From Blastocatellia bacterium (GTDB taxonomy: Bacteria; Acidobacteriota; Blastocatellia; UBA7656), in contig CAVSKO010000002.1 of the NCBI GenBank assembly GCA_963728545.1, positions 4,045,146 to 4,109,145 of the forward strand: a stretch of DNA of 64,000 nucleotides, given 5' to 3'. Under the pieces are notes generated by a model that was not told where the DNA came from, ran no database searches, and was given only the letters and a program-made list of their open reading frames with translations. Position numbers and translations under genes: made by a program. Shown here one piece after another: positions 19,112 to 50,449 of the stretch; positions within the stretch are counted from its first letter, which is position 1, and each line of letters starts with the position of its first letter.

Positions 19112-21814
19112 ATGAAACTTACAATCAGACCGCTCGGTGTATCAGCATTCAATCTCCGCTTAAAAAGGCGGGGTAGAATGCCGGTCAGTTTTCTTATAAT
19201 GGTAGTTCTACTATTGGTCGGTATTCTTCCAGGCGCGCGAGGATTAGCAGGCTCGCACACCGCTGGCGCTTTAGAGAATGCCTTCGCATCAGCACTAACA
19301 TTACAGCCTGATACAGAGATCAATGGCAAACCCCTATCTCAAAATCAGTATAAAACTGATGCCGCTACCAAAGCTAAAGTCGAGGCAGCGCTTGGGAGAA
19401 TGCCGCTGTACTTCGTTGAGAATCGTGGACAGTTAGACCGCCGCGTTGCCTACTACGTTCAAGGCAGCGACACGAGCATTTACTTCACCAGCCAGGGAAT
19501 GACACTGGCTCTGACCGGCCCCGCTCCTTCATCAAGAAACAAGGATGCGAGCCTACAGAAAGGCTCATCGCAAGCGGAATCCCTCAGAAGGATAGCCAAG
19601 GAAGAAGGTAACAGGCAGCGATGGGTAGTCAAGGTTGATTTCGTAGGGGCCAACCCTAATGTCAAGCCAGCAGGCCGGGACCGAACTTCTGCCATCATCA
19701 GCCAGTTTAAGGGGCCAAAACAGCAGTGGAAAACAGGACTTAATACGTACAGCAGCGTAGTCTACACCAATCTGTGGCCTGGGATAGACATGGTGTACTC
19801 TGGCACAGCCAATCAACTGAAGTACAGCTTTATAGTCAAACCAGGCGCGGATGCAAATCAAATCAAGCTGGCTTACAGGGGAGCGAAAGAGGTGAAGCTA
19901 AACACCAGGGGACAGCTTGAAGTGGCAACGCCTATAGGCAGCATTATTGACGAGAAGCCATATTCATACCAGGAGAAAGAAGGCCGACAGGTGGAGGTAG
20001 CTACAGATTATAGGCTGGAGCATAACAGTAAGGCTGGCGTGCAGGTGTGCGGATTCAGGGTCGGAACCTACGACAAGAGTAAGGAACTTGTAGTGGACCC
20101 TGTAGTACTGGTCTATGCAGGCTACATCGGCGGAGCGGACTTTGACCGAGGCTTAGGCATCGCAGTAGATAGCGCAGGCAATGCGTATGTAACCGGTTCC
20201 GCTTCTTCCACAGAAGCAAGTTTCCCTGTGACGGTTGGCCCTGACCTCACCTTCAATGGAAATGGGGACACATTTGTAGCGAAGGTGAACGCTGCGGGCA
20301 CAGCGCTCGTCTATGCAGGCTACATCGGTGGAACGGGCCTTGACCAAGGCTCTGGCATCGCAGTAGATAGCGCAGGCAATGCGTATGTAACCGGCCGCAC
20401 CGCTTCCACAGAAGCAAGCTTTCCCGTAACAGTTGGGCCTGACCTCACCTTCAATGGAAATGGGGTCATATTTGTTGGGGACACATTTGTAGCGAAGGTG
20501 AACGCTGCGGGCACGGCCCTGCTCTATGCGGGCTACATCGGCGGATCGGAGTTTGACCAAGGCGCTGGCATTGAGATAGACAGCGCAGGCAATGCGTATG
20601 TAACCGGCTTGACCCAATCCACAGAAGCAACCTTTCCTGTGACGGTCGGGCCTGACCTGACATACAACGGGTCCACGGACGTATTCGTAGCGAAGGTGAA
20701 TGCTGCGGGCACGGCCCTGCTCTATGCAGGTTACATCGGCGGAGCGGACTTTGACCAAGGCTTAGGCATCGCAGTAGATAGCGCAGGCAATGCGTATGTA
20801 ACTGGCTTCACCAACGCCACAGAAGCAAGTTTTCCTGTGACGGTTGGCCCTGACCTCACCTTCAATGGAAATGGGGACACATTTGTAGCGAAGGTGAACG
20901 CTGCGGGCACGGCCCTGCTCTATGCAGGTTACATCGGCGGAGCGGACCTTGACCAGGGCTTAGGCATAGCGGTAGATGGCGCGGGCAATGCGTATGTAAC
21001 CGGCGACACCGGCTCCACAGGAGCAACCTTTCCTGTTACGGTTGGGCCTAGTGTCACCTATAATGGAGGGGTTGCCGATGCATTTGTAGCGAAGGTGAAT
21101 GCTGCGGGCACGGCCCTGCTCTATGCAGGTTACATCGGCGGAGCGGGCTTTGACCAAGGCGCTGGCATAGCGGTAGACAGCGCAGGCAATGCGTATGTAA
21201 CCGGCACCACCAATTCCTCAGAAGTAACCTTTCCCATAAGAGTCGGGCCTGACCTGACATTCAACGGGGTCAATGACGCATTCGTAGCGAAGGTGAACGC
21301 TGCGGGCACAGAGCTGCTCTATTCGGGTTACATCGGCGGAGCGGACGGTGACCAAGGCCAAGGTATCGCAGTAGATAGCGCGGGCAATGCGTATGTAACT
21401 GGCTTAACCACGTCCACAGAAGCGAGCTTTCCCGTAACAGTTGGGCCTGACCTGACATTCAATGGGGTACAGGACGCATTTGTAGCGAAGATCGTCAATA
21501 CATCGGCACCGCCACCACCAATTTTTGACATCTGCCTACAGGATGATAGCAGTGGCGACTTCCTCCAAATCAACTCAACGACTGGTGATTACCAATTCAC
21601 CAAATGTGGTCCTGGTGGATTCACTATCAGTAGAACAGGCACGGTAAGGATCAGAGGCTCTGTAGTAACGCTACAGCAAAATGGGCCTGACGTTAGAGTA
21701 TTGGCAACTATAACGGGTCGCAGAGGCGTGGCATCAATTCGGGTTTTTTCTAGAGGGACTACCTTCACCATCACAGACAGAGATACAACTAATAACACCT
21801 GCGCGTGTCCGTGA
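19112..21814 (+). CDS. Secreted SBBP-repeat seven-bladed beta-propeller surface protein
   Basis: N-terminal PLYFVENRGQ...YTNLWPGID...FIVKPGAD...LVVDP domain; 7 repeats of YxGYIGG..D.G.GIAVDSAGNAYVTG; Cys-bounded C-terminal domain; start may be 19178. Confidence 0.92.
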   Translation: MKLTIRPLGVSAFNLRLKRRGRMPVSFLIMVVLLLVGILPGARGLAGSHTAGALENAFASALTLQPDTEINGKPLSQNQYKTDAATKAKVEAALGRMPLYFVENRGQLDRRVAYYVQGSDTSIYFTSQGMTLALTGPAPSSRNKDASLQKGSSQAESLRRIAKEEGNRQRWVVKVDFVGANPNVKPAGRDRTSAIISQFKGPKQQWKTGLNTYSSVVYTNLWPGIDMVYSGTANQLKYSFIVKPGADANQIKLAYRGAKEVKLNTRGQLEVATPIGSIIDEKPYSYQEKEGRQVEVATDYRLEHNSKAGVQVCGFRVGTYDKSKELVVDPVVLVYAGYIGGADFDRGLGIAVDSAGNAYVTGSASSTEASFPVTVGPDLTFNGNGDTFVAKVNAAGTALVYAGYIGGTGLDQGSGIAVDSAGNAYVTGRTASTEASFPVTVGPDLTFNGNGVIFVGDTFVAKVNAAGTALLYAGYIGGSEFDQGAGIEIDSAGNAYVTGLTQSTEATFPVTVGPDLTYNGSTDVFVAKVNAAGTALLYAGYIGGADFDQGLGIAVDSAGNAYVTGFTNATEASFPVTVGPDLTFNGNGDTFVAKVNAAGTALLYAGYIGGADLDQGLGIAVDGAGNAYVTGDTGSTGATFPVTVGPSVTYNGGVADAFVAKVNAAGTALLYAGYIGGAGFDQGAGIAVDSAGNAYVTGTTNSSEVTFPIRVGPDLTFNGVNDAFVAKVNAAGTELLYSGYIGGADGDQGQGIAVDSAGNAYVTGLTTSTEASFPVTVGPDLTFNGVQDAFVAKIVNTSAPPPPIFDICLQDDSSGDFLQINSTTGDYQFTKCGPGGFTISRTGTVRIRGSVVTLQQNGPDVRVLATITGRRGVASIRVFSRGTTFTITDRDTTNNTCACP
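20114..21495 (+). repeat. Seven near-identical ~198-bp intragenic tandem repeats
   Basis: GGCAATGCGTATGTAAC recurs in all 7 units; GTAGCGAAGGTGAA in 6, with GTAGCGAAG in the last. Confidence 0.95.
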
Positions 21815-21989: not shown

Positions 21990-22160
21990 GAGCGAAATTC
22001 ATATGAGTGTAAGGAAATGAAAGAAGATTCACCGCAGAGACACAGAGAGCACAGAGCGGGCGCAGAGAAAACAGTATTCTGCTCTGCGCCCCCTTTGCGT
22101 CCTCTGTGTCTCTGCGGTGAGATGTCTCTCTAATCCCGTACATTCAATTGAAAACCGCTC
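21990..22160. mobile_element. MITE with TA target-site duplication (IS630/Tc1-like ends)
   Basis: TA|GAGCGAAATTCATATGAGTGTA ... TACATTCAATTGAAAACCGCTC|TA; internal TCACCGCAGAGACACAGAG inverted repeat; uninterrupted paralogous site at 18823-18867. Confidence 0.85.
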
Positions 22161-22369
22161 TAACTTTCAATGATACCGAAGATTTGGAAGTCGCAGCGAA
22201 GCTTCGGCCTTCTACAGAGCGAAACATCAGTATTCTATGATCGAATCAGGGCACACTTGAAATGTTTCGTTTCATAAATCTGCGATTATGTGGGTTTTTA
22301 GATGCTCTCGCCCTGCCGCCTTCGACGAGAAATCACAAGTTGCGCATCAGAAGCGTTATGCTTGACAGA

Positions 22370-22606
22370 GAGTCGTTGCTAAAAGCAGACCGAGGCGGGG
22401 CGGTGGCGGTGTGGGCTTCATCAGGCATGAGCGTACCAAACGGGCAGGCGGCGATAAATCAAGAGCTTTACAGATTGATCTTCGCGCCCGCCGGGCAATC
22501 TCTGAGATTGGGAGAAGCAACCCGGAGAGCAAAGGCGGCAGTCGGCGACACAGACATTAGCCGTAGCTGGATTTTATTTGGCGACCCGACGATGAGGCTG
22601 AAGTAA
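22370..22606 (+). pseudogene. C-terminal fragment of a C25 (gingipain-like) cysteine peptidase
   Basis: ESLLKADRGGAVAVWASSG...RLGEA...WILFGDPTMRLK matches the C25 C-terminus; no catalytic His/Cys region upstream. Confidence 0.75.
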
Positions 22607-22853
22607 TTATTCTGATAAACGCTATGACTCCAAGTTCATGATCGCAGCTCGATTGCCACAACCTTAAACACATATTTACCGGAACTTCTTGTGAAGATGA
22701 GCAGTTTATGTTTATATGATCGGGTGTGATCCGCATTCCAATTCTCAAGAGACGGTGAATTAGCTCCGTTATTTTGGGACCGCTCATCACAACTCATTTC
22801 TTCCCTCTCACCGGTCCCACTAATTAACACAAGGCTCAAATGGAGGTGCACTC

Positions 22854-25800
22854 ATGAGTCGGCTAACCGGGTGGCGTTCAATTTCATGCGACCTGCTCCA
22901 TAAGATTACTACTTACTGTGGCTTTTTACTCTTGGGCGTCTTGCTGCTGTCAGGCGCGAAAGCAGCGCGGGCGGAAAATCAGAATGATATTCGCACGCTC
23001 GATACAGTCGCCCCTCTTAAGCGGGAACTTGCCGGAGGGCAGGCTCATCGGTATCAAGTTGTGCTCCCTGCGAATCATTTCCTGCAAGTTGTTGTTAACC
23101 AGAGAGGCATCAATGCGGTAGTCGCCGTGTTCGGTCCCGACGATAAAAAAATCCTTGAAGCAGATAGCCTGCTCGACAAAGAAGGACCGGAACAATTCTC
23201 GATTGTAGCCGGTGTGGCCGGGACCTACCGCATTGAAATAAGCTCGCTGGAAAATAAGGCTCCGGCCGGTTATTACTCGATAAAGATAGAAGCGCTTCGC
23301 CCCGTGACTCCTCAGGACTGGACCCGTGTTGATGCCGAAAAGCAATTTCTTGAAGCCACATCCCTGATTGGAGAGGCATCAGCGGAGTTATTACAAAAAG
23401 CCATACCGAAATTTGAGAAGGCCCTTGTGCTATTTCAATCCTTGAATGACCAAACAGGCCAGGCGAGGACGCTCTATTCGCTCGGAGTAGTATATCGTTT
23501 ACTGGGCGAGCAACTAAAAGAGCTTGATTGTTATCAACGAGCGCTGCCCAACTGGGAAGCCACAGGCTACCCTTATAGGGTTGGGGCCACGCTCGAAAGA
23601 ATTGGCTTGATCTTTTCATACATTGGTGAGATGCAGAAGTCGCTAGACAGCTTTGCCGGGGAGCGGTCTCGATGGAGAGCACTGGCCGAGCCTATGAAGG
23701 AAGCCAACGCCTTAAATAATATGGCGATAATCTACTGGGCGATTGGCGAGAGTCAAAAGGCTCTGGTCTATTATGCCGAAGTATTGCGGATTGTCGAATC
23801 CGCTGCTGACGTCCAGGGGCAGGCGGCCACGCTAAATAACATAGGCAAGGTCTATGACGATTTAGGCGAAAAACAGAAGGCGCTTGAAGCTTACAATAAA
23901 TCGCTCGTATTCAGTAAGCTCGCAAATGATCGCCTGACACAAGGCATAACACTGAGACATATCGGCAGTCTCTACATTTCACTGGGCGAGCCTCAAAAAG
24001 CGCTCGATAAATTTACGGAGGCGCTTCCCCTGCACGAGGCAGCTAAAGATAAGCTTGGGAAAGCATTGTCGCTCAACAGAATCGGCACGGTTTGGAGCCT
24101 CTACGGAGATACTCAAAAGGCGTTTGGGTATCACGAGCAAGCGCTTGCGCTGATACGGTCAGTAAAGAATATTAATGTCAGAGGAGAGGGATATATACTT
24201 AACAACATCGGCAAAATTTATTTTGCACGACGCGAATATCATAAAGCGCTCGATCACTACAACCAGGCGGTCCAGCTCTTCCAAAAATCGGTTGACCCGC
24301 TGGGAGAAGCCCAGACGCTCAATAATATCGGCCAGGTCTACATACATCTGCGTGATGAGCAAAAAGCTCTAGACTATTTAAGCAAAGCGCTTTCGATTAA
24401 CCGTGCCATCGGCCATAAAAGCGGAGAGGCGAATAGCTATTACCTCATTGCTCAAGCGGAGCGTAACCGTGGAAATCTCAAAGACTCCCTCGCCGTCATA
24501 GACAAGGCGCTTGAAACCACAGAGAATCTGCGCGACAGAATAGATGTCAACGGCTTGCGCGAATCTTATTTCGGATCGGTGCAGGATTACTATAATTTTA
24601 AAATAGATCTACTGATGCAGCTCGACAAGCTTGCCGCTTCAAAACAATATGCAGCCATCGCGTTTCAAACAAGTGAGCGCGCTCGCGCTCGCACTCTCCT
24701 GGAAAAACTTGTTGAGGCCGGAGTTGATATTAGCCAGGGTGTTGATCCGGCGTTGCTGCAACGTCAACAATCATTGCAGCAATCGATCAATGCGCTTGCC
24801 TCCAGGCGTCAACTAAGTTTGCTCAAAGGAAAGCAGGGGGCCGAACAATCGGCATCGGCGGCCAGGGAAATCGAAAAGCTGACAAGTGCCTATCAAGAAC
24901 TCAAGGCGCAGATAAGAGCAAGCAGTCCGCGCTATGCGGCGCTCACGCAGCCCCAGCCGCTAACGCTTCCTGAAATTCAACGACAGGTGCTCGACCCGGA
25001 CACAATGCTTCTGGAGTACTCGCTGGGTGATGAGCGCAGCTATTTATGGGCGGTCACTCAATCCTCGATTGCGAGCTTCACTCTGCCCAAACGCGCGGAA
25101 GTCGAGGCGGCAGCGCGGCGCGTATATGAACTCCTGACCGCGCGCAATCGGCGCGAGCAGGGTGAAACAATAGAACAGAGGCGCGCGATCCTGACACAGG
25201 CAGAGGCCCAATACGCGGAAGCGGCGGCAGCCTTGAGCCGGATGGTGCTTTTTCCGGTGGCCTCAATGTTGATGAAGAAAAGACTCCTGATAGTTTGTGA
25301 AGGCGCGCTTCAATATGTGCCTTTTGCAGCCCTGCCTGTGCCTGACGGCGCGCGCGAGGCTGCTGATCCGCAAAACCGAGAACCGGCCACCGGCTACCTG
25401 CCGCTCATCGTCGATCACGAAATCGTAAACCTGCCTTCGGCGTCTGTGCTGGCCGTATTGCGGCGCGAGACGGCCGGGCGCAGACCTGCTGACGGGGTGG
25501 TCGCGGTGCTGGCCGATCCGGTCTTCGACAAAGAGGATGACCGGATCACAGGAAGAACAAAGAAGCGTGCTGTCGGAGACGTTCGGCTTGCAGGCGACGG
25601 AGGGCGCATCAATCGGCTGCCGTTTTCACGGCGAGAAGCTAAGGCGATACTTTCTGTCGTCCCTCCCGGAAAAGGTATTATGGCGCTCGACTTCAAAGCC
25701 AGCCGAGCAACCGCTACCAGCGATGGGCTCCGTCAGTACCGCATAGTCCATTTCGCTACGCACGGCGTGCTTGACAGCGAGCGTCCCGAGCTATCTGGGG

Positions 25801-26180
25801 TAGTCTTCTCACTCGTCGACGAGCAAGGCGCGGCGCAGGACGGATTTTTGAGATTGCACGATATATACAATCTGAATTTACCTGCCGAGCTGGTTGTGCT
25901 GAGCGCGTGTCAGACGGGGCTTGGTAAAGAGATAAGGGGCGAAGGATTGGTCGGATTGACGCGGGGTTTCATGTACGCGGGAGCGGCGCGTGTAGTGGCC
26001 AGCCTCTGGCAAGTCAACGATGCGGCTACCGCTGAGTTGATGGGCCATTTCTACAGAGGGATGATGCGAGAGGGGTTGCGCCCGACGGCGGCTCTGCAAG
26101 CAGCCCAGGTAGAGATGTGGGAAAAGGGGCGCACGCCCTATTATTGGGCAGCCTTCGTGTTGCAAGGCGAATGGAAGTAG
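22854..26180 (+). CDS. Secreted TPR-CHAT (caspase-like) protease
   Basis: Signal peptide (LLLGVLLLSGAKAARA), PPC-like beta domain, about 9-10 long TPRs, SERARAR, HFATHG and LSACQTG dyad, SLWQVND, PYYWAAFVLQGEW. Confidence 0.95.
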   Translation: MSRLTGWRSISCDLLHKITTYCGFLLLGVLLLSGAKAARAENQNDIRTLDTVAPLKRELAGGQAHRYQVVLPANHFLQVVVNQRGINAVVAVFGPDDKKILEADSLLDKEGPEQFSIVAGVAGTYRIEISSLENKAPAGYYSIKIEALRPVTPQDWTRVDAEKQFLEATSLIGEASAELLQKAIPKFEKALVLFQSLNDQTGQARTLYSLGVVYRLLGEQLKELDCYQRALPNWEATGYPYRVGATLERIGLIFSYIGEMQKSLDSFAGERSRWRALAEPMKEANALNNMAIIYWAIGESQKALVYYAEVLRIVESAADVQGQAATLNNIGKVYDDLGEKQKALEAYNKSLVFSKLANDRLTQGITLRHIGSLYISLGEPQKALDKFTEALPLHEAAKDKLGKALSLNRIGTVWSLYGDTQKAFGYHEQALALIRSVKNINVRGEGYILNNIGKIYFARREYHKALDHYNQAVQLFQKSVDPLGEAQTLNNIGQVYIHLRDEQKALDYLSKALSINRAIGHKSGEANSYYLIAQAERNRGNLKDSLAVIDKALETTENLRDRIDVNGLRESYFGSVQDYYNFKIDLLMQLDKLAASKQYAAIAFQTSERARARTLLEKLVEAGVDISQGVDPALLQRQQSLQQSINALASRRQLSLLKGKQGAEQSASAAREIEKLTSAYQELKAQIRASSPRYAALTQPQPLTLPEIQRQVLDPDTMLLEYSLGDERSYLWAVTQSSIASFTLPKRAEVEAAARRVYELLTARNRREQGETIEQRRAILTQAEAQYAEAAAALSRMVLFPVASMLMKKRLLIVCEGALQYVPFAALPVPDGAREAADPQNREPATGYLPLIVDHEIVNLPSASVLAVLRRETAGRRPADGVVAVLADPVFDKEDDRITGRTKKRAVGDVRLAGDGGRINRLPFSRREAKAILSVVPPGKGIMALDFKASRATATSDGLRQYRIVHFATHGVLDSERPELSGVVFSLVDEQGAAQDGFLRLHDIYNLNLPAELVVLSACQTGLGKEIRGEGLVGLTRGFMYAGAARVVASLWQVNDAATAELMGHFYRGMMREGLRPTAALQAAQVEMWEKGRTPYYWAAFVLQGEWK

Positions 26181-26278
26181 TGCAAGCAGTGCTGTCGGCT
26201 ATGTGTTGTTTACCGCTGACCGGTCTGTTCTCAGTCCTGACAGCTCAACCCGCGACATTCGAGCGCCGGGGCGTCTGA

Positions 26279-26872
26279 ATGGTGAATTTATCTTCTCAAA
26301 GGAAAGCCTGGGGTTTAAACCAGGTGGCTTTCGACAAGCTGCTTGTGCAACTTGACGCTGACCGTGAGCGCGCAGGCGAGAAGTATGAGATTATTCGCCT
26401 CAAGCTGGTAAGGTTCTTTGAATGGCGCGGGTCTGTTTTTCCCGAAGACCACGCCGACGAAATTATCAATCGGGTCGCAAGGAGAATTGATGAAGGCGAG
26501 GAGATTCGCGACCTAAAGAACTATTTTTACGGGGTGGCGCGCTTGCTTTTTCTGGAGACGCTGAAGGAACAGGAGAAAGAAGCGGCGGCGCTCGAACAGA
26601 TGCCGCCGCTTCAGATTATTTCGGAAGAAAGCGACGAGCAGGAGCCACGCCTTGAATGTATCGAGATGTGCCTGCGAAATCTCATGGCTGAAAACCGCGA
26701 ATTGATTATTCAGTACTACCGTATGGAAAAGGGCGCTAAGATAGAAAACCGAAAGGCGCTTGCTGAAAGATTGGGCATACCGCTCAACGCGTTGAGGATC
26801 AGAGCGCATCGGATCAAAGCGAAGGTAGAAGAATGCGCCAGGGAATGCTTGAAGCCGTTTGCCGGGAGGTGA
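26279..26872 (+). CDS. ECF-type sigma-70 factor
   Basis: Region 2-like EDHADEIINRV...YFYGVARL; region 4 HTH RKALAERLGIPLNALRIRAHRIK; 197 aa. Confidence 0.85.
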   Translation: MVNLSSQRKAWGLNQVAFDKLLVQLDADRERAGEKYEIIRLKLVRFFEWRGSVFPEDHADEIINRVARRIDEGEEIRDLKNYFYGVARLLFLETLKEQEKEAAALEQMPPLQIISEESDEQEPRLECIEMCLRNLMAENRELIIQYYRMEKGAKIENRKALAERLGIPLNALRIRAHRIKAKVEECARECLKPFAGR

Positions 26873-26896
26873 AATGAATCCCGACATTTTGCCACT
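26870..26896 (+). promoter_or_regulatory. Putative ECF promoter TGAAATG-N14-GCCACT
   Basis: Same motif and spacing at 27989-28015; overlaps the sigma stop codon. Confidence 0.6.
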
Positions 26897-26920
26897 AAAG
26901 ATTAAGGGAAGCACTAAACA

Positions 26921-27889
26921 GTGAAAAAAGAGCGCCACGAGCATGAATTGTTTGTGCAATACCTGCTTGGAGAGTTGTCCGAGGCGGAGAGGACACGTCT
27001 CGAACAGGAGTACTTCGGCGACGATGAGTTTTTCGAGCAACTTCTGGTCGCAGAAGACGAGTTGATCGATGCTTACGTACGAGGCGAGCTTGGCGGGCGC
27101 AAACGCGAGCGATTTGAATCGTATTTTCTGTCATCCCCCCGGCAGCGCGAGAAAGTAAAGATTGCCAGAGCATTGGTCGATTGCGCCACTCAGTCATCGG
27201 TGGCTGTGTCACAGGATGCAGAGAGCAGAAAGCCTAACAACCGGCGGCAGTCTTTCCTCGACACGATTGGCATCAACAATTGGACGCTCAGGCTGGCGCT
27301 GGCTGCGGCTGCGCTGGTGATAGTTGTGGGCGGCTCATTGTTCATCATTGAAACTGTGCGGCTCAAAAATCAGGTTGAGCAAATTCAAGCCGAGCGGGCG
27401 GAGGCGCAAAGACGCGAGCAAGAGTTGCAGCAGCAAATAGCCGAGCAAGGCGCACATAACGAACGGCTGGCCGCCGAGCTTCAACGCGAGCGCAGCGAGC
27501 GCGAGTTGCTGGAACAGGAGATGGCCCGAGCGCAGCGGTCATCGCTCAACACGATCACATTTATTCTCATGCCCGGACTGGTCAGGGGCACTGACGAGCC
27601 GAAGAGATTGGTTATCCCGCGAGGCGCAGAGCTTGTGCGGATCAATCTCGATTTTGAACAGGGCAACTATAAAAGCTTTCGCGCAACGCTTGAAACCGTT
27701 GACGGCAAACGAATATGGAGCAGCGGCCCGCTCGCGGCGCGATCAAACAAAGCAGGCAAGATCGTCACATTGGAGTTGCCTGCCCCTCTCTTCACCAAAG
27801 GGGACTACATAGTGACGCTCAGCAGAGTCGGCGCCGGCGGCAGTCTTGAGCCGGTCGGCGAATACTATTTCACTGTCGTGAAAAAGTAA
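26921..27889 (+). CDS. Putative transmembrane anti-sigma factor (duplicated ASD-like repeat, TM, coiled coil, beta domain)
   Basis: YLLGELSEAERTRLE and YVRGELGGRKRERFE resemble zf-HC2 N-termini without Zn ligands; TM LALAAAALVIVVGGSLFII; directly follows the ECF gene; GTG start. Confidence 0.75.
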   Translation: MKKERHEHELFVQYLLGELSEAERTRLEQEYFGDDEFFEQLLVAEDELIDAYVRGELGGRKRERFESYFLSSPRQREKVKIARALVDCATQSSVAVSQDAESRKPNNRRQSFLDTIGINNWTLRLALAAAALVIVVGGSLFIIETVRLKNQVEQIQAERAEAQRREQELQQQIAEQGAHNERLAAELQRERSERELLEQEMARAQRSSLNTITFILMPGLVRGTDEPKRLVIPRGAELVRINLDFEQGNYKSFRATLETVDGKRIWSSGPLAARSNKAGKIVTLELPAPLFTKGDYIVTLSRVGAGGSLEPVGEYYFTVVKK

Positions 27890-27988
27890 TCTTCACAAAA
27901 CTACGCCATCCTCTGATTAAAACCTGTCCGTTCTACAAACAGCCTATCGCATCCATCCTGTATAGATTGAAAAGCTGAACGCCCTCCA

Positions 27989-28015
27989 TGAAATGTTTTT
28001 TAGCTGATCGTCACT
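27989..28015 (+). promoter_or_regulatory. Putative ECF promoter TGAAATG-N14-GTCACT
   Basis: Matches 26870-26896; about 90 nt upstream of ATG 28105, which has an AAGGAGG RBS. Confidence 0.6.
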
Positions 28016-28104
28016 CGTAGGCGGAAAGCAAGCGACCGGGATAAACCGTATCGCTGCTCCTGTTAAAACACGGGTCGCCTTTAATAACCAAAGGAGGAAG
28101 AGCT

Positions 28105-31100
28105 ATGTATTGCTCATCAACTACTCAATCAACAGGAAGGTCTACTTGTCTAAGGATCGTTTTTCTCACACTGGGAGTTATCAGCTTTATCGGATTGATT
28201 GCCTTGCCTAAGGCGCAACCTGCGGCTTACAGCACGGCTACCGTCGCACCTCCGGGTGGTTTGGTATTAATCGATTTCGAAGATTTGACGCCCGACGGGC
28301 CGGGAACGCCTGCCACTGTTTCTGTGACCAACCAATATGAGGATAAGGGAATCATTTTCAACAGCCCGGTCGCCCTTGATTATTCAAGAGGGCTTCCCAT
28401 CCCTGGATTCGCGCATTCCGGCACAAAGGCCGTCGAACAATGCTACGGCACAGAGTTCTGCACGACTCCGATTGAGATGAGATTCACTACGGCGCAGGCT
28501 CGCGTTAAGGTCTGGGCAGGTTACCGTCAATCGCTCGGCAAAGGGCGCACTGTGATCTTACGCGCTTTCGACGCGAACGGTATTGATGTAGGCTCCGCGA
28601 CTGTCAGCCTTAACCCAAATACCAGCCCGCAACCGATTAGTAAGCCGTTGCAGGTCATTTCGACCAGCGCAAACATCTCCCGCGCAACAGTAGCTTTTTC
28701 GCCTGGAGAGGTTTTGACGAATGGCCTGGCCATTGACGATATAGAATTCGACACTATCGGGCTGTCGCCCTGTTCAAGCGCTCAGCCCCCGGTCGTGACG
28801 CTTAACCCGCGTTTGAATTCGCAACTTGTGCAGACCAACAATCTTATCCCGGAAGGCATTATAGCTACGCAAACGCCACTTGAATCGGCTACCTTGAATG
28901 TTACGGGGACCAACGGAAGCAACTCGCTTGACCTTTTGAGCAGCGGCTTAATCTCGCGGAGCGGCGGTGGTATTGATCTGGTCAGGGTTCAAGGGATGTT
29001 GTTCCCGGGCCGCAACACAGTCACTGTCAATGCCAGGAATTGCAATGGTGTGGGCCAAAGCAGCGCGATAATGATTTATGGCCCTGTAGCCGAAGGCACG
29101 CGGTTTATATTCATGGGGCTTGAAATCACGCAGGCGATCCAGGACATGAGTAATTCAGTACCGCTGATCGCAAACAAGCGAGCTTTTGTTCGCGTCTATC
29201 TGCGCGCGGAAGGCCCGACCGGCGAAATACTCAACGTCAGCGGCACTCTAACAGCCTCCCGGCCCGGCGATTTCAATCCGCCTCTCACTCCTGCCGGACT
29301 TGAATCATTAAACAAGATCACCGTCAATTCGGCGGCAGACATTATAGATAAGCGGCTGGACATCAACGCGAGCTTGAATTTTGAGCTGCCTCCCGAATGG
29401 ATAGCGGCAGGGCAATTGCAGCTTCGCCTCTCGCGCCTGGACATTGAGGGGACCTCGTCGGGTCTCTCCTGCGCAGGCTGCCAAAACGTAGGGAGGTCGG
29501 GTGCGCCCATCGTTTACGAGTTTAAGAACGCCCCGCCCGTAAGCATTTTCATCGCCAGCGTTCCCTATAGCATGCTCGACGAGATGGGCGAAACCCAAAT
29601 CTATGAGCCGAGGCAAAAAGATTTCGATCTGCTCGCGTCCTGGCTAAAGCGGGCCTATCCGACAGGCACAGTTCTCAGCACTCAGATAACGGCTGACGCT
29701 TTTGACGGCCTTCCAGAATGCGGCGCTGTGAATAAGAAACTCTATTATTACAAAGTGATGGGCCGGCTAAGGCTGGGAATAGATGAGCGCACGCGCTACT
29801 ACGGCATGGTATCGGACGAAGGCAACTTCATGCGTGGCTGTTCACAGGGCGCTCCCAGCTTTGTCGCCTCCGGGCCGACCGGCGTGCCCGGCAACCCGCA
29901 CAGTGCGTCTGCCTCTGGTGGGGGATGGGATACGGATGGCTCCTACGGTGACTGGTACGGCGGGCACGAGATCGGCCATATGTTTGGTCGTTTACACGCA
30001 CAATTCTGTGGCGTGACAGCCAACTACGTGCCTTATCCGTATGACAATGGTTTCATCAGCGGGCCTGACTTCCGCTACGTTGGCTTCGATCTAGGTGACC
30101 CGAACAACATGATTCAGCAACAGGTCTATGCCCCCGACGTCTGGACGGATGTTATGACTTACTGCCGCAATGAGTGGATGTCGAACTTTACTTACGAAGG
30201 CATCCTCGATGGAATGATTCACGATGTGATCGATCTCGACCCTATCTCTCCGCCCGGCGCTTCGGTAAAAACTTCGAGCGATGCTTTATTCGTACTGGGC
30301 AGTCTCAACCTGACGAACGAGAGTGTTCAACTGGATGATTTCTTGCGCTTACCGGGGCTCAGGCTCTCGCCACGACCGGAGAGCAGCAGCTTTAGTATCG
30401 ACCTGCTCGACGGCGCAGGCAACCTTCTGGCGAGATACCCGTTCGAGCCAAAGGAAGACACTGACACCGAATCCGATGGAGATAGGATTGCCCTGGTTAC
30501 AGAAGTAGTCCCATACCTTCCAGGCACAAAGCGAATCGTAATCTCTAAGGACGGCGTTGGGTGGGCCTCTCGCAACGTCAGCGACAACGCGCCGCAAGTC
30601 AAGGTTAGCTTTCCTAACGGTGGCGAGACGCTCCAGGGGCAGACGCGAACCGTAACCTGGAAGGCCAGCGACGCCGATGGCGATCAACTCACCTATTCGT
30701 TGCTTTACAGTACTGACGCCGGACAGAGCTGGCAGCCTATTGACACGAACATCAACCGGTCCAGCTATACGTTGAAACTAGAAGAACTCTCCGGCAGCAA
30801 CAGGGCGCTCGTGCGGGTCATTGCTACAGACGGAGTGAACACAAGCACGGACGATTCAAACGCCCCATTCCTCGTGCCGATCAAAGCGCCGCAAGCCAGA
30901 ATCACTTCTCCGGCTAATCAGTCTGTCTTCTCGACAACTCAGACGGTAGTATTGATCGGTGAGGCTAATGATCTTGAGGACGGCTTTCTAGACGGGCAGG
31001 CGCTGCGGTGGAGTTCCGACAGGCAAGGCGCGCTCGGCTCCGGACGCGCACTGAGCGTCACAGGGCTTACTCCAGGCACGCATAAGATCACCCTTACCGC

Positions 31101-31419
31101 CAAAGACAAGAACAATGCCGAAGGGAATGCCTTCATCCTGATACGGGTTACACCGGCTATTCCCACAATCGTTTTCAGCGGCAACTCAGGTATAACCTGT
31201 CCGGCTGACATCACAGTAACGGCGGCGCAGAGTCAAAGCTCCGTCGTTGTGAATTATCCTTTGCCGGATTTCAGCAACCTGGGAGGCGCAGTTGTTTTAG
31301 CCTCGCCTCCGCCCGGCTCTGCGTTCCCAATCGGCTCGACAACCGTAACCATAACCGCAGCCACTGCCTCGGGAACCTTCTCCTGCACGTTTAGAGTGAG
31401 AGTAAATCCGGCAACTTAG
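28105..31419 (+). CDS. Large secreted metzincin metalloprotease with Ig-like and HYR domains
   Basis: N-terminal hydrophobic signal; HEIGHMFGRLH (HExxHxxGxxH); DVMTY Met-turn; ITCPADITV...FPIGSTTVT HYR domain. Confidence 0.85.
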   Translation: MYCSSTTQSTGRSTCLRIVFLTLGVISFIGLIALPKAQPAAYSTATVAPPGGLVLIDFEDLTPDGPGTPATVSVTNQYEDKGIIFNSPVALDYSRGLPIPGFAHSGTKAVEQCYGTEFCTTPIEMRFTTAQARVKVWAGYRQSLGKGRTVILRAFDANGIDVGSATVSLNPNTSPQPISKPLQVISTSANISRATVAFSPGEVLTNGLAIDDIEFDTIGLSPCSSAQPPVVTLNPRLNSQLVQTNNLIPEGIIATQTPLESATLNVTGTNGSNSLDLLSSGLISRSGGGIDLVRVQGMLFPGRNTVTVNARNCNGVGQSSAIMIYGPVAEGTRFIFMGLEITQAIQDMSNSVPLIANKRAFVRVYLRAEGPTGEILNVSGTLTASRPGDFNPPLTPAGLESLNKITVNSAADIIDKRLDINASLNFELPPEWIAAGQLQLRLSRLDIEGTSSGLSCAGCQNVGRSGAPIVYEFKNAPPVSIFIASVPYSMLDEMGETQIYEPRQKDFDLLASWLKRAYPTGTVLSTQITADAFDGLPECGAVNKKLYYYKVMGRLRLGIDERTRYYGMVSDEGNFMRGCSQGAPSFVASGPTGVPGNPHSASASGGGWDTDGSYGDWYGGHEIGHMFGRLHAQFCGVTANYVPYPYDNGFISGPDFRYVGFDLGDPNNMIQQQVYAPDVWTDVMTYCRNEWMSNFTYEGILDGMIHDVIDLDPISPPGASVKTSSDALFVLGSLNLTNESVQLDDFLRLPGLRLSPRPESSSFSIDLLDGAGNLLARYPFEPKEDTDTESDGDRIALVTEVVPYLPGTKRIVISKDGVGWASRNVSDNAPQVKVSFPNGGETLQGQTRTVTWKASDADGDQLTYSLLYSTDAGQSWQPIDTNINRSSYTLKLEELSGSNRALVRVIATDGVNTSTDDSNAPFLVPIKAPQARITSPANQSVFSTTQTVVLIGEANDLEDGFLDGQALRWSSDRQGALGSGRALSVTGLTPGTHKITLTAKDKNNAEGNAFILIRVTPAIPTIVFSGNSGITCPADITVTAAQSQSSVVVNYPLPDFSNLGGAVVLASPPPGSAFPIGSTTVTITAATASGTFSCTFRVRVNPAT

Positions 31420-31455
31420 AACGGTTTTCATTTGAGCGTAGTTAACTGCGGAACG

Positions 31456-31498
31456 AAAAAAAAGAGAGATGAAGAAATTCTCTTCATCTCTCTTTTTT
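31456..31498. terminator. Bidirectional intrinsic terminator (rpoC / metalloprotease)
   Basis: A8-GAGAGATGAAGA-AATTC-TCTTCATCTCTC-T6 between convergent genes. Confidence 0.9.
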
Positions 31499-31536
31499 AG
31501 TTTGATGCAAAGCAACCTCACGGCTTGCCTTGTCAA

Positions 31537-35772
<4,236 letters not shown>

Positions 35773-35873: not shown

Positions 35874-38800
35874 TTATTCCATCACTTCCTCGCTGCGGCG
35901 CATCAGCTCAACGTCGAGACACAGCGATTGAAGCTCGCGTATCAGAACGTTGAACGATTCGGGCACGCCGGGATCGAAGTCGGCTTCGCCTTTTACGATT
36001 GCCTCGTAAATCTTCGACCGGCCCGCAACGTCGTCGGACTTCGCAGTCAACAGCTCTTGAAGTATGTGCGCCGCGCCGTAGGCTTCCAACGCCCACACTT
36101 CCATTTCGCCAAAGCGCTGGCCGCCGAATTGCGCCTTGCCGCCAAGCGGCTGCTGCGTGATGAGCGAGTACGGCCCAATCGAGCGCGCGTGTATTTTGTC
36201 GTCTACCAGGTGCGACAGCTTCATCATATAGATGTAGCCTACGGTCACCTTTTGCTCGAACGGGTCGCCGGTCAGACCGTCGAAAAGCATGGTCTTGCCC
36301 GACGTAGGCAGCTCGGCAAATTCAAGCAGGTGTTTGATCTCCTGCTCGCGCGCGCCGTCAAATACAGGCGACGCGAACTGTATGCCTTCGACCAGCGACC
36401 AGGCGTGAGCGGTCAACGCCTCATCCGACATCGCGGTGAACCGCTCCTGAGATTCAGTCGAAGTGAAGACCTCGTGATAAATCTTGCGAAGCTCGTTTAT
36501 CTTTCCGCCTTCTGCGAGCAGCTCGCCCACGTGGTTGCCTATCGCTTTTGAAGCCCATCCGAGATGCGTCTCAAGAATCTGGCCGACGTTCATACGTGAA
36601 GGCACGCCCAAAGGATTCAGCACGATCTCGACCGGCGTCCCGTCGGGCAGATACGGCATCTCCTCTTCAGGGAGTATGCGCGCGATGACGCCCTTGTTGC
36701 CGTGACGGCCCGCCATCTTGTCGCCGACGGAAAGCTTGCGCTTCATGGCGATAAAGACTTTGACCATCTTGATGACGCCCGGCGGTAGCTCGTCGCCCTT
36801 CTTGAGCTTCTCAACGTTCTCGTTGTGAAGCTGTCGCTGGACGTTGATCTGCCGCTCGGTGCGCCGCTCGATGTCGGAGATTTCCGCCCCCACGTCGAGC
36901 CGCGAGCTTGTGATCTCGACCTTGCGCAGCGCGCCGATCTCAAGCTCTTGAAGCATCTCGCGCGTGAGCTTGGTCCCCTTTGCGAGCAGCTTCTTGTTCT
37001 TGTAGGTCAGGTCGTCGGCAAGGCGCTGGCCTTCCAACAGCTCGTAGATACGCTTGTTGCGCTCATCTTCGAGAATGCGTATCTCGTCGTTGAGGTTCTT
37101 TAAGAGCTTCTCTTCTTCGGCGTGCTCGATGTTCAAAGACCGCTCGTCTTTTTCCGCGCCCTTGCGCGTAAAGACCTTGACGTTGACCACCGTGCCGTCG
37201 ATGCCGGGCGGGCAGGTGAGCGAGGCGTCGCGCACGTCGCCCGCTTTTTCGCCGAAGATCGCGCGGAGGAGTTTCTCTTCCGCCGTCAATTGAGTCTCGC
37301 CCTTCGGCGTGACTTTGCCGACGAGTATCGAGCCGGGCTTCACGCTAGCGCCGATGCGGATGATCCCCGAGTCGTCCAGGTCGCGCAGGGCCGATTCCGA
37401 GACGTTCGGGATGTCGCGCGTTATCTCTTCGGGGCCGAGCTTCGTGTCGCGCGCTTCGACTTCAAGCTCTTCGATGTGAATCGAGGTGAACGAGTCTTCT
37501 TTCACAAGTTTCTCGGAAACCAGAATCGCGTCCTCGAAGTTGTAGCCGCGCCAGGGCATGAAAGCCACCAGCACGTTGCGGCCCAGGGCAAGCTCGCCCC
37601 CCTGTGTGCAAGGGCCGTCGGCGATGACATCGCCTTTCTTGATGACCTGGCCTTCGCGCACTATGGGCTTCTGGCTGATGCAGGTGTTCTGATTCGACCG
37701 CTTGAATTTCGTCAGCGCGTAAATGTCGGCGTTGATCTCGCGCGAGGTTGTGCCTCCCGCTATGCCGTGCTCGGCTCGGATGATGACGCGCTCCGAGTCC
37801 ACGGAATCGACCACGCCGTCGCGGCGAGCCACGACGACCGCGCCCGAATCCTGCGCCGTCACGCGCTCCATCCCCGTGCCCACGAGCGGCGCTTCGGCGC
37901 GAAGGAGCGGGACCGACTGGCGTTGCATGTTCGACCCCATGAGCGCGCGGTTCGCGTCGTCGTTTTCGAGGAACGGGATCAGCGACGCGGCGACCGACAC
38001 GAGCTGTTTCGGGCTGACGTTGATGAATTCAAGCTCCTCGCGCATGACAAACTTTGTCTCGCCCGCCTTGCGCGCGGCCGGGCGCTCCTGCTGGATGCGG
38101 CCCTGGCGGTCGACTTCGACCGTGGCCTGCCCGATGGTGTAATGGTCTTCCTCCCAGGCCGACAGGTAAAACGGGTACGGCTCGTATTCGGCCGACTGCT
38201 GGTTCGATTCAAGCTTCTTATTCGCGCGGTTGACCTGCTCTTTAGGCAGGTGGTCGCCGATATTGAACTCGGTGTCTCCGGCCGAGAGCACGCGCACATA
38301 ATCGATCACGCGCCCGTTTTCAACCTTGCGATAAGGCGATTCGATAAAGCCGAACTCGTTGATCCGCGCAAAGCAAGAGAGGCTTGAGATCAATCCGATG
38401 TTCGGACCCTCAGGCGTCTCAATCGGACAGATGCGGCCGTAGTGAGTCGGGTGAACGTCACGGACTTCGAATCCCGCGCGCTCGCGCGAAAGGCCGCCCG
38501 GCCCGAGGGCCGACAATCTGCGCTTGTGCGTGATCTCCGACAGCGGGTTCGTCTGATCCATAAACTGCGACAACTGCGAAGAGCCGAAAAACTCGCGCAC
38601 CGCAGCCGTCACGGGCTTGGCATTGATGAGGTCGCGCGGCATCGCGGTCTGCATCTCTTGATGGATCGACATCTTTTCTTTGATGGCGCGCTCCATGCGA
38701 ACGAGGCCGATGCGGAATTGGTTTTCAAGCAACTCGCCGACGGCGCGCACCCTTCGGTTGCCCAGGTGATCGATGTCGTCCGGCTCGCCTATGCCTTTGC

Positions 38801-40385
38801 GCATCTTGAGCAGGTAGCCGATCACGTCTACGAAATCCGTAGTCGAAAGCGTCTGCTGGTTGATGCGGTCGCGCTCGGGTTTGCCGAGCTTTATGTTGAA
38901 TTTTAAACGGCCAACGCGCGAGAAATCGAATTTGCGCTCGTCGAAAAACATCCCGCGAAACAGGTTCCAGGCCGTCAGAATGGTCGGCGGATCGCCGGGG
39001 CGCATCTTGCGATAGATCTCAAGTATGGCGTCGCGCGGCGTCTTGACCGAATCTTTCTTGAGCGTCTGGCTTACGACCGTGCCGACATCGTCGCGTTCGG
39101 GGAAGAATATCTCGACCTCCGAGACGCCCGACTCTATGATCTGCTGCCACTCGCGCGCGGTAAGCTCCGCGTTGGTCTCGGCTATGACTTCGCCCGTTTC
39201 GGTGTTGACCACGTCGTCGGTCAAAAACGCGCCTTCGATCTCTTGAGGGTCGACGGCCACGGATTTGATCTTGGCCTTTTGAAGCGTGTCGATGTCTCGC
39301 CGCGAAAGCTTCTTGGCGCTTGAGCCGCCACGGACGATCACTTCGCCCGAACGGTCTTCGATAGATTCGGCCAGCCGCAACCCGACGAGCCCCTCATTAG
39401 GCTCGAAGTGCAAAAGCCCGCCTTTGATCGTCGCCTTTTGTGAAGTGTAGAACATGCGGAGCACTTCGGCGTCGGTAAAGCTCGCGCGCTTTATCTCGTC
39501 CTCAAGCTGAGAGTCCGAGCCTATGCGGTCGAGATCGATCTTTTCCATAAGCCCGAGGGCGCGCAGAAAGACCGTGCCGAGGAATTTGCGCTTGCGGTCT
39601 ATGCGGACATAGAGCAGGTTCTTTGTGTCGTACTCGAACTCCACCCACGAGCCGCGATAGGGAATGACCTTGGCCAGAAAGTAAGTATTGTTGTTGGCCT
39701 TCTCAAAGAAGATGCCGGGCGAGCGGTGGAGTTGGCTGACGATAACGCGCTCGGTCCCGTTGATGATGAACGTGCCGTTATCGGTCATCAGCGGTATCTC
39801 GCCGAAAAAGACCTCTTCTTCTTTTATGTCGCGGATAGATTTCTGGCCCGTGTCTTCATCCGTGTCCCACACGGTCAGGCGAATCTTGACCTTGAGCGGC
39901 ACGGCATAAGTCATGGATTTTTCCTGGCACTCTTTTTCCGAGTGCTTGTGCTGCAAGGTGACCGGCTCGCCGCAGTTGTCGCACAGCACGGGCGAAACCG
40001 TGTTGACGGTGCCGCACTGCGGGCAGGCCACGTCTTCCGCCGCGTAAGGGTTGACGCGCAGAATAGCCCCGCAAGAGCGGCAATTGGCCCTCAGGTGGTA
40101 AAGCCCTTCAAGCTGACCGCACTTGCACTGCCAGTTACCAATCGAATACTCGACAAAGTCGAGCTGCGAGGTTTCGCGAAAATCGGTTATCGGAAAGACG
40201 GATCGGAAGACGGCTTGCAGGCCCGTATTCTCACGTTCTGCCGGCAGCAGGTCCATCTGCAAAAAGCGATTATAGGATTGTCTCTGAACCTCTATGAGGT
40301 TCGGAATTCTTATCGCCGTCTTGATCCGAGAAAAATCGAACCGCTCGCGGCTTGCGCCGTTACCGTAGTTAACTTGTGCTGACAT
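35874..40385 (-). CDS. rpoB: RNA polymerase beta subunit with an 8-Cys lineage insert
   Basis: [42 protein letters not shown]; ATG 40385 has a GAGGAG RBS (ORF track starts at 40397). Confidence 0.99.
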
Positions 40386-40475
40386 ATCGCTCCTCAATCA
40401 GTAGGCAAGAAAAAGCTTGCAGCCGGCCACACGACTGTCAACTTCGCGCGAGAAGCTTATCCACGCAAAACGGGG

Positions 40476-49519: not shown

Positions 49520-50449
49520 ATGCGAGAGATCGCCTTCGCCATCCTGCGGCGCTTGTTTATACTCGTGCCGGTCCTCTGGGCCGTCGTCACTTTAGTATTC
49601 CTGCTCATACACCTGGTCCCGGGCGACCCGGCGGAATTGCTCTTAGGCCCTAATGCAACGCCCGAGCAAATCCAGACCGTACGCGAGCAACTGGGGTTAA
49701 ACAAGCCGCTTATCACACAATACAAAGACTACTGGGTCGGACTCGTGAGCGGCGACTGGGGCGAAAACCCCGTGACAAAAAAACCCGTGCTTGAGCGCAT
49801 AATGTTGCGTTACCCGGCAACGATCACGCTGGCAGTGGCGGCGATGTTTATCGCGACCCTTATCTCGATTCCGCTCGGAGTGACGGCGGCGACTCATCGC
49901 GGCAGCGTCATCGATAGCGCGTCAACGCTTGTTGCGCTGCTCGGGATTTCGCTCCCGAGCTTTGCGCTAGGCCCTTTGCTGATACTGCTGTTCTCAGTCG
50001 AGCTGGGCGTCACGCCCGTATCAGGCCGGGGCAGTATTGCGCACATCATCCTTCCCGCGGTGACCCTGGGCGCGGCGCTTTCGGCCATACTCACGCGAAT
50101 AGTTCGGTCGAGCGTGCTCGAAGAACTCGGAGAAGATTACGTGCGCACTGCGCGGGCGAAGGGGTTGCCCGAGCGAAAAGTTATATACAAGCACGTTTTA
50201 AAGAACGGCCTGATACCCGTCGTCACGGTGCTCGGGCTTCAATTCGGCGTTTTGCTCGCCGGGGCGATCATCACCGAGCGAGTATTCTCGTGGCCGGGGG
50301 TGGGCAGCCTGCTCGTCGACAGCATCAGCGAGCGCGATTATAAACTGACTCAAGGATGCATACTGGTCATCGCGACTACGTATGTGCTGGTCAATACACT
50401 AACCGATCTTCTTTATCGATTTCTCGACCCTCGAATAAAAGTGGATTAG
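49520..50449 (+). CDS. Dipeptide/oligopeptide/nickel ABC permease (DppB/OppB type)
   Basis: VPGDPA, EDYVRTARAKGL EAA loop, ITERVFSWPGVG; start 49520 or 49496. Confidence 0.93.
   Translation: MREIAFAILRRLFILVPVLWAVVTLVFLLIHLVPGDPAELLLGPNATPEQIQTVREQLGLNKPLITQYKDYWVGLVSGDWGENPVTKKPVLERIMLRYPATITLAVAAMFIATLISIPLGVTAATHRGSVIDSASTLVALLGISLPSFALGPLLILLFSVELGVTPVSGRGSIAHIILPAVTLGAALSAILTRIVRSSVLEELGEDYVRTARAKGLPERKVIYKHVLKNGLIPVVTVLGLQFGVLLAGAIITERVFSWPGVGSLLVDSISERDYKLTQGCILVIATTYVLVNTLTDLLYRFLDPRIKVD

Follow-up and report, generated by a model that had tools for sequence, protein, structure and literature searches.

A Conserved Bipartite Box between the Genes of an ECF-like Sigma Factor and Its Anti-Sigma Factor in Acidobacteriota Points to a Negative Feedback Design

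Introduction

The stretch of DNA considered here, referred to below as the window, comprises 64,000 nt of contig CAVSKO010000002.1 from the assembly GCA_963728545.1 (Blastocatellia bacterium; positions 4,045,146-4,109,145). It encodes a divergent extracytoplasmic function (ECF)-like sigma factor, with the gene for an exported TPR-CHAT protease-like protein upstream and that for a membrane anti-sigma factor downstream. Two copies of a bipartite box, one at the junction between the sigma and anti-sigma genes (site 1) and the other beyond the anti-sigma gene (site 2), were proposed in an earlier note to be the -35/-10 elements of this sigma factor. Comparison with 80 related loci makes it quite probable that both boxes are promoters read by the RNA polymerase carrying the adjacent ECF-like sigma factor.

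Two described systems place a sigma-dependent promoter in front of an anti-sigma gene. In Corynebacterium glutamicum, four housekeeping promoters have been described for sigH-rshA, and a SigH-dependent promoter drives rshA alone, which its authors relate to a fast shut-off (Busche et al. 2012, PMC3489674). As in that system, the sigma and anti-sigma genes of the window are adjacent, and a sigma-dependent promoter (here a predicted one) at the end of the sigma gene would serve the anti-sigma gene alone. The parts differ, since RshA is described as a small cytoplasmic zinc/redox anti-sigma factor and the SigH box as GGAA-N16-19-GTT (PMC3489674), whereas the window, known from its sequence alone, shows a membrane anti-sigma factor without N-terminal cysteines, a TGAAAT-N15-GCCACT box, and an exported TPR-CHAT protein in the cassette.

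In the rpoE-rseABC system of Escherichia coli, a second σE promoter lies directly upstream of rseA and provides negative feedback (Rhodius et al. 2006, PMC1312014). The σE promoters described in that work consist of GGAACTTTT, a preferred 16-nt spacer to the TCAAA in YGGTCAAAA, and a discriminator of 5 or 6 nt (PMC1312014). A -35 block followed by a run of T, a GTCA in the -10 element, and a short discriminator are also found here: site 2 reads TGAAATGTTTT..CGTCACT, its GTCA lying one base nearer to the -35 than in the E. coli promoters. However, σE also has a promoter upstream of rpoE, and thus positive autoregulation, whereas the window has none at threshold upstream of its sigma or CHAT genes. 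As both systems illustrate, negative feedback instead of positive autoregulation is a known design.

The combination of an ECF sigma factor and a CHAT protein also has precedents. DdvA from Myxococcus xanthus is an anti-sigma factor fused to a periplasmic TPR-CHAT moiety, and is, according to its authors, the only characterised one (PMC11506125). DdvS-DdvA and the window share an ECF sigma factor, a single-pass membrane anti-sigma factor, an extracytoplasmic TPR-CHAT, and promoters of neighbouring genes (in the window, predicted ones). The TPR-CHAT of DdvA is described as lacking part of the active site, and its regulon is an island of cyclic oligonucleotide-based antiphage signalling system (CBASS) and clustered regularly interspaced short palindromic repeats (CRISPR) genes (PMC11506125). 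In contrast, no DdvA-type fusion is found in the window, where the CHAT (22854-26180) and anti-sigma (26921-27889) genes are separate with the sigma gene between them, and the cargo of its family is a varying set of proteins, many with signal-peptide-like N-termini. The three genes of the window look like a DdvA split into an exported CHAT protein and a membrane anti-sigma factor.

In type III-E CRISPR systems, the TPR-CHAT protein Csx29, the inhibitor Csx30, and CASP-σ are co-encoded, and the boxes of the sigma factor lie inside its own locus (PMC10028731). The window similarly brings together genes for a TPR-CHAT protease-like protein, an ECF-like sigma factor, and its presumed inhibitor, with predicted target boxes within the locus, but its CHAT protein is exported, whereas that of the type III-E system is cytoplasmic. 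Its sigma factor scores well under the cut-off of the CASP-σ model NF041236 (7e-6, 26.2 bits, cut-off 100), and neither a CRISPR context nor cas genes were found among the genes of the 18-40 kb part of the window, the part looked at.

Among those group descriptions of the ECF classification 2.0 that were searched, ECF54 alone has CHAT in its neighbourhood (Casas-Pastor et al. 2021, PMC7826278). This group is described there as restricted to Actinobacteria, with CHAT and TPR neighbours, no anti-sigma factor, and the predicted box GTATCAG/CTCC. The window does not belong to it, as its box is TGAAAT/GCCACT and an anti-sigma factor is present. Group ECF278s2, from Chloracidobacterium, resembles the window by description only: the classification gives it a one-helix anti-sigma factor at +1 and no conserved upstream motif (PMC7826278). 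The box predictions of that classification start from the assumption that an ECF will, as a rule, control its own gene (PMC7826278), and because the usual method looks upstream of the sigma gene, a box lying after that gene may be missed. Literature searches retrieved no paper describing this sigma factor family or its box.

Two Bipartite Boxes in the Window

The features on which the proposal is built are the following:

Site 1: 26870-26896, + strand, TGAAATGAATCCCGACATTTTGCCACT; -35 TGAAATG at 26870-26876 and -10 GCCACT at 26891-26896; predicted ECF-type promoter before the anti-sigma gene

Site 2: 27989-28015, + strand, TGAAATGTTTTTTAGCTGATCGTCACT; -35 TGAAATG followed by TTTTTT, -10 GTCACT at 28010-28015; predicted ECF-type promoter before the gene for a 1104-aa protein

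Sigma factor: 26279-26872, + strand, divergent ECF-like protein of 197 aa; presumed reader of both boxes, from its fold match and its conserved anti-sigma neighbour

Both boxes are located where the earlier note had placed them, and the likeness it reported is real, with 12 of the 13 specified positions identical and the spacing equal. Site 1 overlaps the end of the sigma open reading frame (ORF), its first three bases being the TGA stop codon of 26279-26872. Transcription from it would start some 5-9 nt past the -10 element, around 26901-26905, and the predicted leader of approximately 17-20 nt carries AAGGGA, followed by GTG at 26921. Site 2 is placed 100 nt past the anti-sigma stop codon and 90 nt ahead of the ATG at 28105. 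Its start would fall around 28020-28024, and a G conserved in the family is located at 28023.

The exact pattern TGAAATG-N14-GYCACT occurs twice in the 64 kb, both strands counted, against 0.01 expected, and none of 100 shuffles held two or more copies. When two mismatches are allowed, the count is 3 against 1.94 expected, and only the exact pair stands out. Both sites had served to define the pattern, which makes this statistic post hoc and of little weight by itself; the real support comes from other loci.

Conservation of the Junction Box among Related Loci

The comparison set consists of 80 related Acidobacteriota loci from one scan of genome contigs. A TPR-CHAT homologue is encoded in 68 of them, mostly directly upstream of the sigma gene (in L014, L031, L034, L041, L043, and L062 the CHAT gene comes after the anti-sigma gene instead), and an anti-sigma homologue directly follows the sigma gene in 74, whereas a homologue of the 1104-aa protein encoded after site 2 appears in none of the 80. 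According to these counts, CHAT, sigma, and anti-sigma form a conserved unit, and the next gene varies.

The sequences around the sigma stop codons, when printed out, show a recurring TGA(A)ATGAAT...GCCACT. A Gibbs search that was given no pattern covered the region from 40 nt before to approximately 85 nt after the stop codon in the 79 sources in which this codon is readable (78 loci and the window). A first run settled on the conserved codons for the N-terminus of the anti-sigma factor (YLLGELSEEE) instead of a DNA signal, and was discarded. The rerun, limited to the intergenic part, returned TGAAATGAAA..(C)GCCACT (full form TGAAATGAAATCGCGTTTTTCGCCACT), with the information held in positions 1-10 and 22-27 and a spacer between them that is fixed in length and unconserved.

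For a scan of approximately 1.8 Mb on both strands (the 80 loci and the window), half-site matrices were built from 38 junction sites, none of them from the window. At a score of at least 18, 61 matches were obtained in the real sequence versus 1 in the shuffled one; at a score of at least 14, the numbers are 101 versus 19. A junction box scoring at least 14 is present in 52 of the 79 sources with this matrix, and in 43 with a matrix retrained on both classes of sites. In the window, only 26870 (22.2) and 27989 (19.0) reach 14 with the retrained matrix; the score of 22.2 for site 1 came from a matrix not trained on the window, and site 2 scores 18.4 with the matrix trained on junction sites alone, the window excluded. 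Matches on the - strand at 49689, 21550, and 8192 (scores 12.3-13.1) were treated as noise, being unusual in spacing or of the wrong variant.

The family core can be written as TG(AA/TG)A(T/C)G, 14 unconserved bases, and GCCAC/GT, followed by a conserved G approximately 8 nt further downstream. This G is found in both classes of sites and gives an indirect hint of the start zone. In 48 loci, a median of 24 nt separates the end of the -10 element from the first plausible start of the anti-sigma gene, and the distances of 6 nt correspond to in-frame TTG or GTG codons within a Shine-Dalgarno-like stretch. The element has the form of an ECF promoter, with two blocks, a fixed spacer, and an orientation towards a gene start, and nearly all matches scoring at least 18 have the modal spacing. 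The pattern proposed in the earlier note thus recurs in its bipartite form across the family, and its consensus needs slight amendment (TG(AA/TG)A(T/C)G, GCCAC/GT, and the downstream G). The note had named absence from homologous loci as grounds for giving up its proposal; instead, the box recurs both at the junction (52/79) and past the anti-sigma gene (20/69).

A Second Class of Sites after the Anti-Sigma Gene

Among the 49 matches outside the junction, most read TG(TG/AA)ATGTTTT...GCCAC/GT, lie on the + strand, and follow shortly after the anti-sigma stop codon. A site scoring at least 15 within -60 to +400 nt of this codon occurs in 20 of the 69 eligible sources, site 2 of the window included. 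This zone makes up 1.9% of the scanned sequence and holds 19 of the 37 non-junction matches of at least 15 in the loci, and these second-class sites were outside the training set of the matrix.

An ORF of at least 60 aa begins 8-176 nt downstream of 18 of the 20 sites, many of them with signal-peptide-like N-termini; the other two have no such ORF within 300 nt. No Pfam family was assigned to 20 of the 23 ORFs scanned downstream of such sites; the remaining three encode a subtilase of family S8, a multihaem/TPR protein, and a protein with DUF3466. When the intergenic regions of the window and its closest relatives (L001 and L002) are aligned, conservation is restricted to the box and approximately 12 nt after it, and the three downstream genes are unrelated. 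In some loci, further sites lie 2.5-4 kb downstream, or on the opposite strand before divergent genes.

Regions Upstream of the Sigma and CHAT Genes

With the retrained matrix, the 250 nt upstream of the sigma gene hold a box scoring at least 14 in 0 of 78 sources and one scoring at least 12 in 2 of 78; the best score in the window for this region is 3.6. As a control, 0 of 79 sources reach 12 inside the sigma gene, versus 43 of 79 that reach 14 at the junction. Upstream of the CHAT gene, none of 31 loci has a box scoring at least 14. The usual autoregulatory promoter upstream of the own gene was not found at this threshold, so that the lack of the motif before the CHAT and sigma genes, reported for the window in the earlier note, holds there and extends to the family. 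Across the family, the boxes are conserved in place, form, spacing, and orientation, and none at threshold precedes the sigma or CHAT genes.

A scan for σ70-type promoters over 22000-31600 gave counts at the level of shuffled sequence, with no candidate at either box and nothing in 22607-22853 or 26181-26278, the stretches ahead of the CHAT and sigma genes. Over the same range, the terminator scan detected none on the + strand between the CHAT, sigma, anti-sigma, and next genes. A gctatg..gtttaccgct element is shared by the CHAT-sigma gaps of the window (26199-26222) and L002 (approximately 75-95 nt upstream of the sigma gene); with a score of 3.6, it does not match the ECF box.

Six loci (L007, L009, L010, L018, L015, and L027) carry a related box between the CHAT and sigma genes, within 150 nt upstream of the latter, which is the classical autoregulatory place. 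This box has the exact -35 side TGAAATGTTTT, a spacer, and a -10 of CCAGAT, ACAGAT, or ACAGCT, and lies below the matrix threshold. In L007, L009, L010, and L018 there is no junction site, and the sigma and anti-sigma genes nearly abut. Such an alternation, with the element ahead of the operon in one clade and within it in the others, is what would be expected of the sigma factor's own promoter, and the sequences predict that clades of the family differ in promoter placement and hence in the sign of the feedback.

Box Variants and Sigma Factor Residues

The box exists in natural variants, with TGAAAT/C or TGTGAT as the -35 element and CCACT or CCAGT as the -10 element. In 27 loci, the junction site was compared with the best other site of the same locus. 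For the -35, both sites are of the AA type in 12 loci and of the TG type in 14, with 1 discordant locus; for the -10, both have C in 19 and G in 6, with 2 discordant loci. The corresponding Fisher p values (7e-7 and 9e-5) are inflated by shared ancestry.

In the sigma factor, the substitution I174M matches the -35 type perfectly, and A171T, H177L, and E184Q nearly so. In the structural model, residues 171, 174, 177, and 184 are located on the last long helix (169-195), which is the expected recognition helix of σ4.

Four pairs of cassettes come from the same metagenome-assembled genome (MAG): L002/L012, L004/L027, L018/L035, and L009/L060. The three informative pairs (L002/L012, L004/L027, and L018/L035) all differ in variant, either in the -35 (AA versus TG) or in the -10 (CAC versus CAG). 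As judged from these three pairs, the sequences suggest that paralogous cassettes are insulated from each other.

A Divergent ECF-like Sigma Factor

The sigma factor has no Pfam match at an E value of 0.01 or better (Sigma70_r4_2 appears only at E 3.3), and its scores against the NCBIfam models TIGR02989 (3e-10, 40.1 bits, cut-off 124.6) and TIGR02937 (5e-7, 29.5 bits, cut-off 42.9) fall below the cut-offs, for which reason it is called here divergent and ECF-like. An AlphaFold2 model built from a 30-sequence alignment has a mean predicted local distance difference test (pLDDT) value of 82 and shows 8 helices in two bundles. In a Foldseek search of the PDB with this model, the top matches are all ECF sigma factors (SigL, SigH, EcfG-type RpoE, AlgU, SigW, BldN, and σE; probability 0.99-1.0). 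The 20 best matches are likewise ECF sigma factors with probabilities of 0.91-1.0, at E values of 2e-3 or weaker and with a low global template modelling (TM) score. The model thus identifies the protein as a divergent ECF-like member, with the σ2 and σ4 parts of the ECF fold, although it falls outside the curated sequence models.

There are 2571 homologues at an E value of 1e-3 or better, and those listed with a source name are acidobacterial (Blastocatellia, Pyrinomonadaceae, or others). Within the window, the gene has no second copy. Cys 127, 131, 186, and 190 of the sigma factor, which form two CxxxC motifs, are invariant in the 30 aligned family members. The model places them on helix 118-133 and on the helix at the C-terminus (169-195), and the N-terminus of the anti-sigma factor has no cysteine. 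These four residues may form a metal or disulfide site within σ4 itself.

Proposed Circuit and Alternative Explanations

If both boxes are promoters of the adjacent sigma factor, site 1 would start a short-leader transcript of the anti-sigma gene alone, and site 2 a transcript of the following gene, that for an exported metzincin-like protein. For the sigma gene, another promoter would presumably be in use, serving it either by itself or jointly with the upstream TPR-CHAT gene. Once released from the membrane anti-sigma factor, the sigma factor would turn on its local cargo and produce more inhibitor, without raising its own synthesis, and the outcome would be negative feedback and a quick shut-off, with the usual positive loop absent. 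We infer from the sequence that the boxes act as promoters, that the adjacent sigma factor reads them, where transcripts start, and what the feedback effect would be.

The wiring proposed in the earlier note, in which the sigma factor drives its inhibitor and one neighbour and not itself, fits the window in view of the junction and post-anti-sigma boxes and of the 0/78 and 0/31 counts upstream. At the level of sequence, feedback through the anti-sigma gene alone is what the site suggests, since site 1 starts with the stop codon of the sigma gene and 52/79 sources have a box at this junction. What the note regarded as a departure from the usual autoregulation is a design already known elsewhere. 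The assignment of the boxes as -35/-10 elements of the adjacent ECF is supported by comparison (the blind Gibbs recovery and the second class of sites), not by experiment. That the sigma factor does not activate itself in the window can be held with somewhat less assurance, as reasonably likely on the sequences compared.

Several points weigh against this interpretation. The junction counts are partly circular, since the matrix was trained on junction sites, and at the threshold used 27 of the 79 sources have no junction site and 49 of the 69 no post-anti-sigma site. The lack of an ECF box upstream of the sigma gene is an absence at threshold, and the window and L002 share another element there, so that the sigma factor may still activate itself weakly. 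The sigma factor lies under every curated family cut-off. The -10 consensus GCCACT is not of the common CGTC type of ECF promoters, and when TGAAAT is aligned with the TGAAAC of Bacillus σW-type promoters the spacer is approximately 2 nt shorter. Residues 37 and 42, outside σ4, track the -35 type equally well as those on the recognition helix. Most of the concordance between variants reflects phylogeny: along the sigma tree, a single change of the -35 type is seen and at least 4 changes of the -10 type, which leaves only 1 (-35) and 2 (-10) independent contrasts and a sign test without power. For these reasons, shared ancestry and too few independent pairs, the concordance was rejected as independent statistical proof, and, given the tree, the variant agreement is consistent with recognition by the sigma factor rather than an independent demonstration of it.

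Another sigma factor could read the boxes, be it the paralogous ECF of a different cassette in the genome or the housekeeping sigma factor, but this is improbable. Cross-talk is conceivable, as several cassettes per genome occur in this group (the four same-MAG pairs). However, the variants of the box sort with the clade of the neighbouring sigma factor, the three informative pairs carry different variants, as expected if each sigma factor reads its own sites, and the window has no second sigma copy. The boxes are, moreover, unlike the TTGACA-N17-TATAAT of the housekeeping sigma factor, and neither was a candidate in the σ70 scan.

It is also scarcely likely that the boxes are sites of another DNA-binding protein, or an RNA element (for processing, or a hairpin) setting the ratio of sigma to anti-sigma factor. 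A signal for translation or processing would be at home at the junction, where the spacers are often A-rich on the left and T-rich on the right (GAAT..ATTC, AAATG..CATTT), which looks by eye like an inverted repeat. Nevertheless, RNAalifold predicted 0 pairs in 35 aligned junction sites, and the apparent stems, also by eye, lie in differing registers between loci and are absent from the second class of sites. A hairpin in the spacer was accordingly rejected, both the missing pairs and the shifting registers making it unlikely. For a dimeric regulator, the two conserved blocks are too dissimilar to form a dyad or a direct repeat. Against either possibility, the element is also found before unrelated genes, on either strand, and mostly ahead of the start of an ORF on the same strand.

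A chance resemblance of the two window sites without function is very improbable: although the pattern was chosen after seeing both and the two-mismatch count is at chance (3 versus 1.94), the exact pair was expected 0.01 times, the box was recovered from other loci, a matrix blind to the window then found both sites, and real matches exceed shuffled ones by 61 to 1 at a score of 18.

With both boxes read by the adjacent sigma factor, a broader picture of the family can be put forward as a tentative possibility. The window would be one of a large family of portable cassettes of soil Acidobacteriota, composed of an exported TPR-CHAT protease, a four-cysteine ECF-like sigma factor, and a membrane anti-sigma factor, in which the CHAT protein, separate from the anti-sigma factor, might be its site-1 protease or sensor (a split DdvA). 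The promoter between the sigma and anti-sigma genes, with no self-activation, would give self-limiting pulses, and the promoter at the end would let almost any secreted cargo plug in. Paralogues would be kept apart by a recoded -35 (AA/TG) and -10 (C/G), matched in σ4 and σ2, respectively.

Neighbouring Genes

The other features of the region are the following:

TPR-CHAT protein: 22854-26180, + strand, exported protease-like protein of 1108 aa; Pfam CHAT at 8e-67 and TPR repeats, with a signal-peptide-like N-terminus

Anti-sigma factor: 26921-27889, + strand, single-pass membrane protein of 322 aa; zf-HC2 at residues 9-29; gene predicted to be served by site 1

1104-aa protein: 28105-31419, + strand, exported, predicted target of site 2; HEIGHMFGRLH at residue 621, C-terminal Big_7 and HYR (Pfam)

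-35-like 10-mer: 22258-22267, + strand, TGAAATGTTT; equal to the -35 side of site 2, overlapping the start of the ORF of a 114-aa Peptidase_C25 fragment

The anti-sigma factor matches Pfam zf-HC2 with 27.8 bits (cut-off 22.2) and has a hydrophobic segment at approximately residues 121-143, followed by a coiled coil. The zf-HC2 domain, the transmembrane segment, and the conserved position identify it at the gene level as the co-encoded anti-sigma factor, the pairing with the sigma factor being predicted.

The 1104-aa protein has a hydrophobic N-terminus and one HExxHxxGxxH zinc-protease signature. It has no sequence match in the PDB, Pfam gives only Big_7 and HYR, and the Atlas leads to the M66 and reprolysin-like families (scores 0.76-0.81) are leads only. 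The label of metalloprotease used in the earlier note is plausible, with the single HExxHxxGxxH motif and these weak leads as its basis. Directly downstream, and convergent with this gene, are rpoC (31537-35772, - strand) and rpoB (35874-40397, - strand).

The lone TGAAATG that the note had pointed out at 22258 is present, and overlaps the start of the C25 remnant ORF; the 7-mer on its own is at chance in the window (8 occurrences versus 8.3 expected). The longer TGAAATGTTT has 2 occurrences in the window versus 0.06 expected. No -10 partner was found for it at 22258, a position that the matrix did not score as a site. From its sequence, this element may be the remnant of a promoter, preceding a gene that has likewise decayed.

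Upstream of the cassette, the window encodes a DUF7948/SBBP beta-propeller protein (19112-21814, + strand), a homologue of which is encoded downstream of the cassette in L001 (9282-11522). This protein may belong to the same secreted-protein neighbourhood.

Significance

The circuit proposed here is already documented in other bacteria, and the finding adds to that picture without changing it; here it would operate in an uncharacterised, CHAT-associated family of ECF-like sigma factors. For this large family, whose members lie below the curated models, the boxes provide a concrete promoter model, comprising the -35 and -10 elements, their spacing, the likely start zone, and two natural variants. 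They also define a local predicted regulon, formed by the anti-sigma factor and the neighbouring genes, many of which encode proteins with signal-peptide-like N-termini. The matched variants of sigma factor and promoter could, in addition, serve as orthogonal switches.

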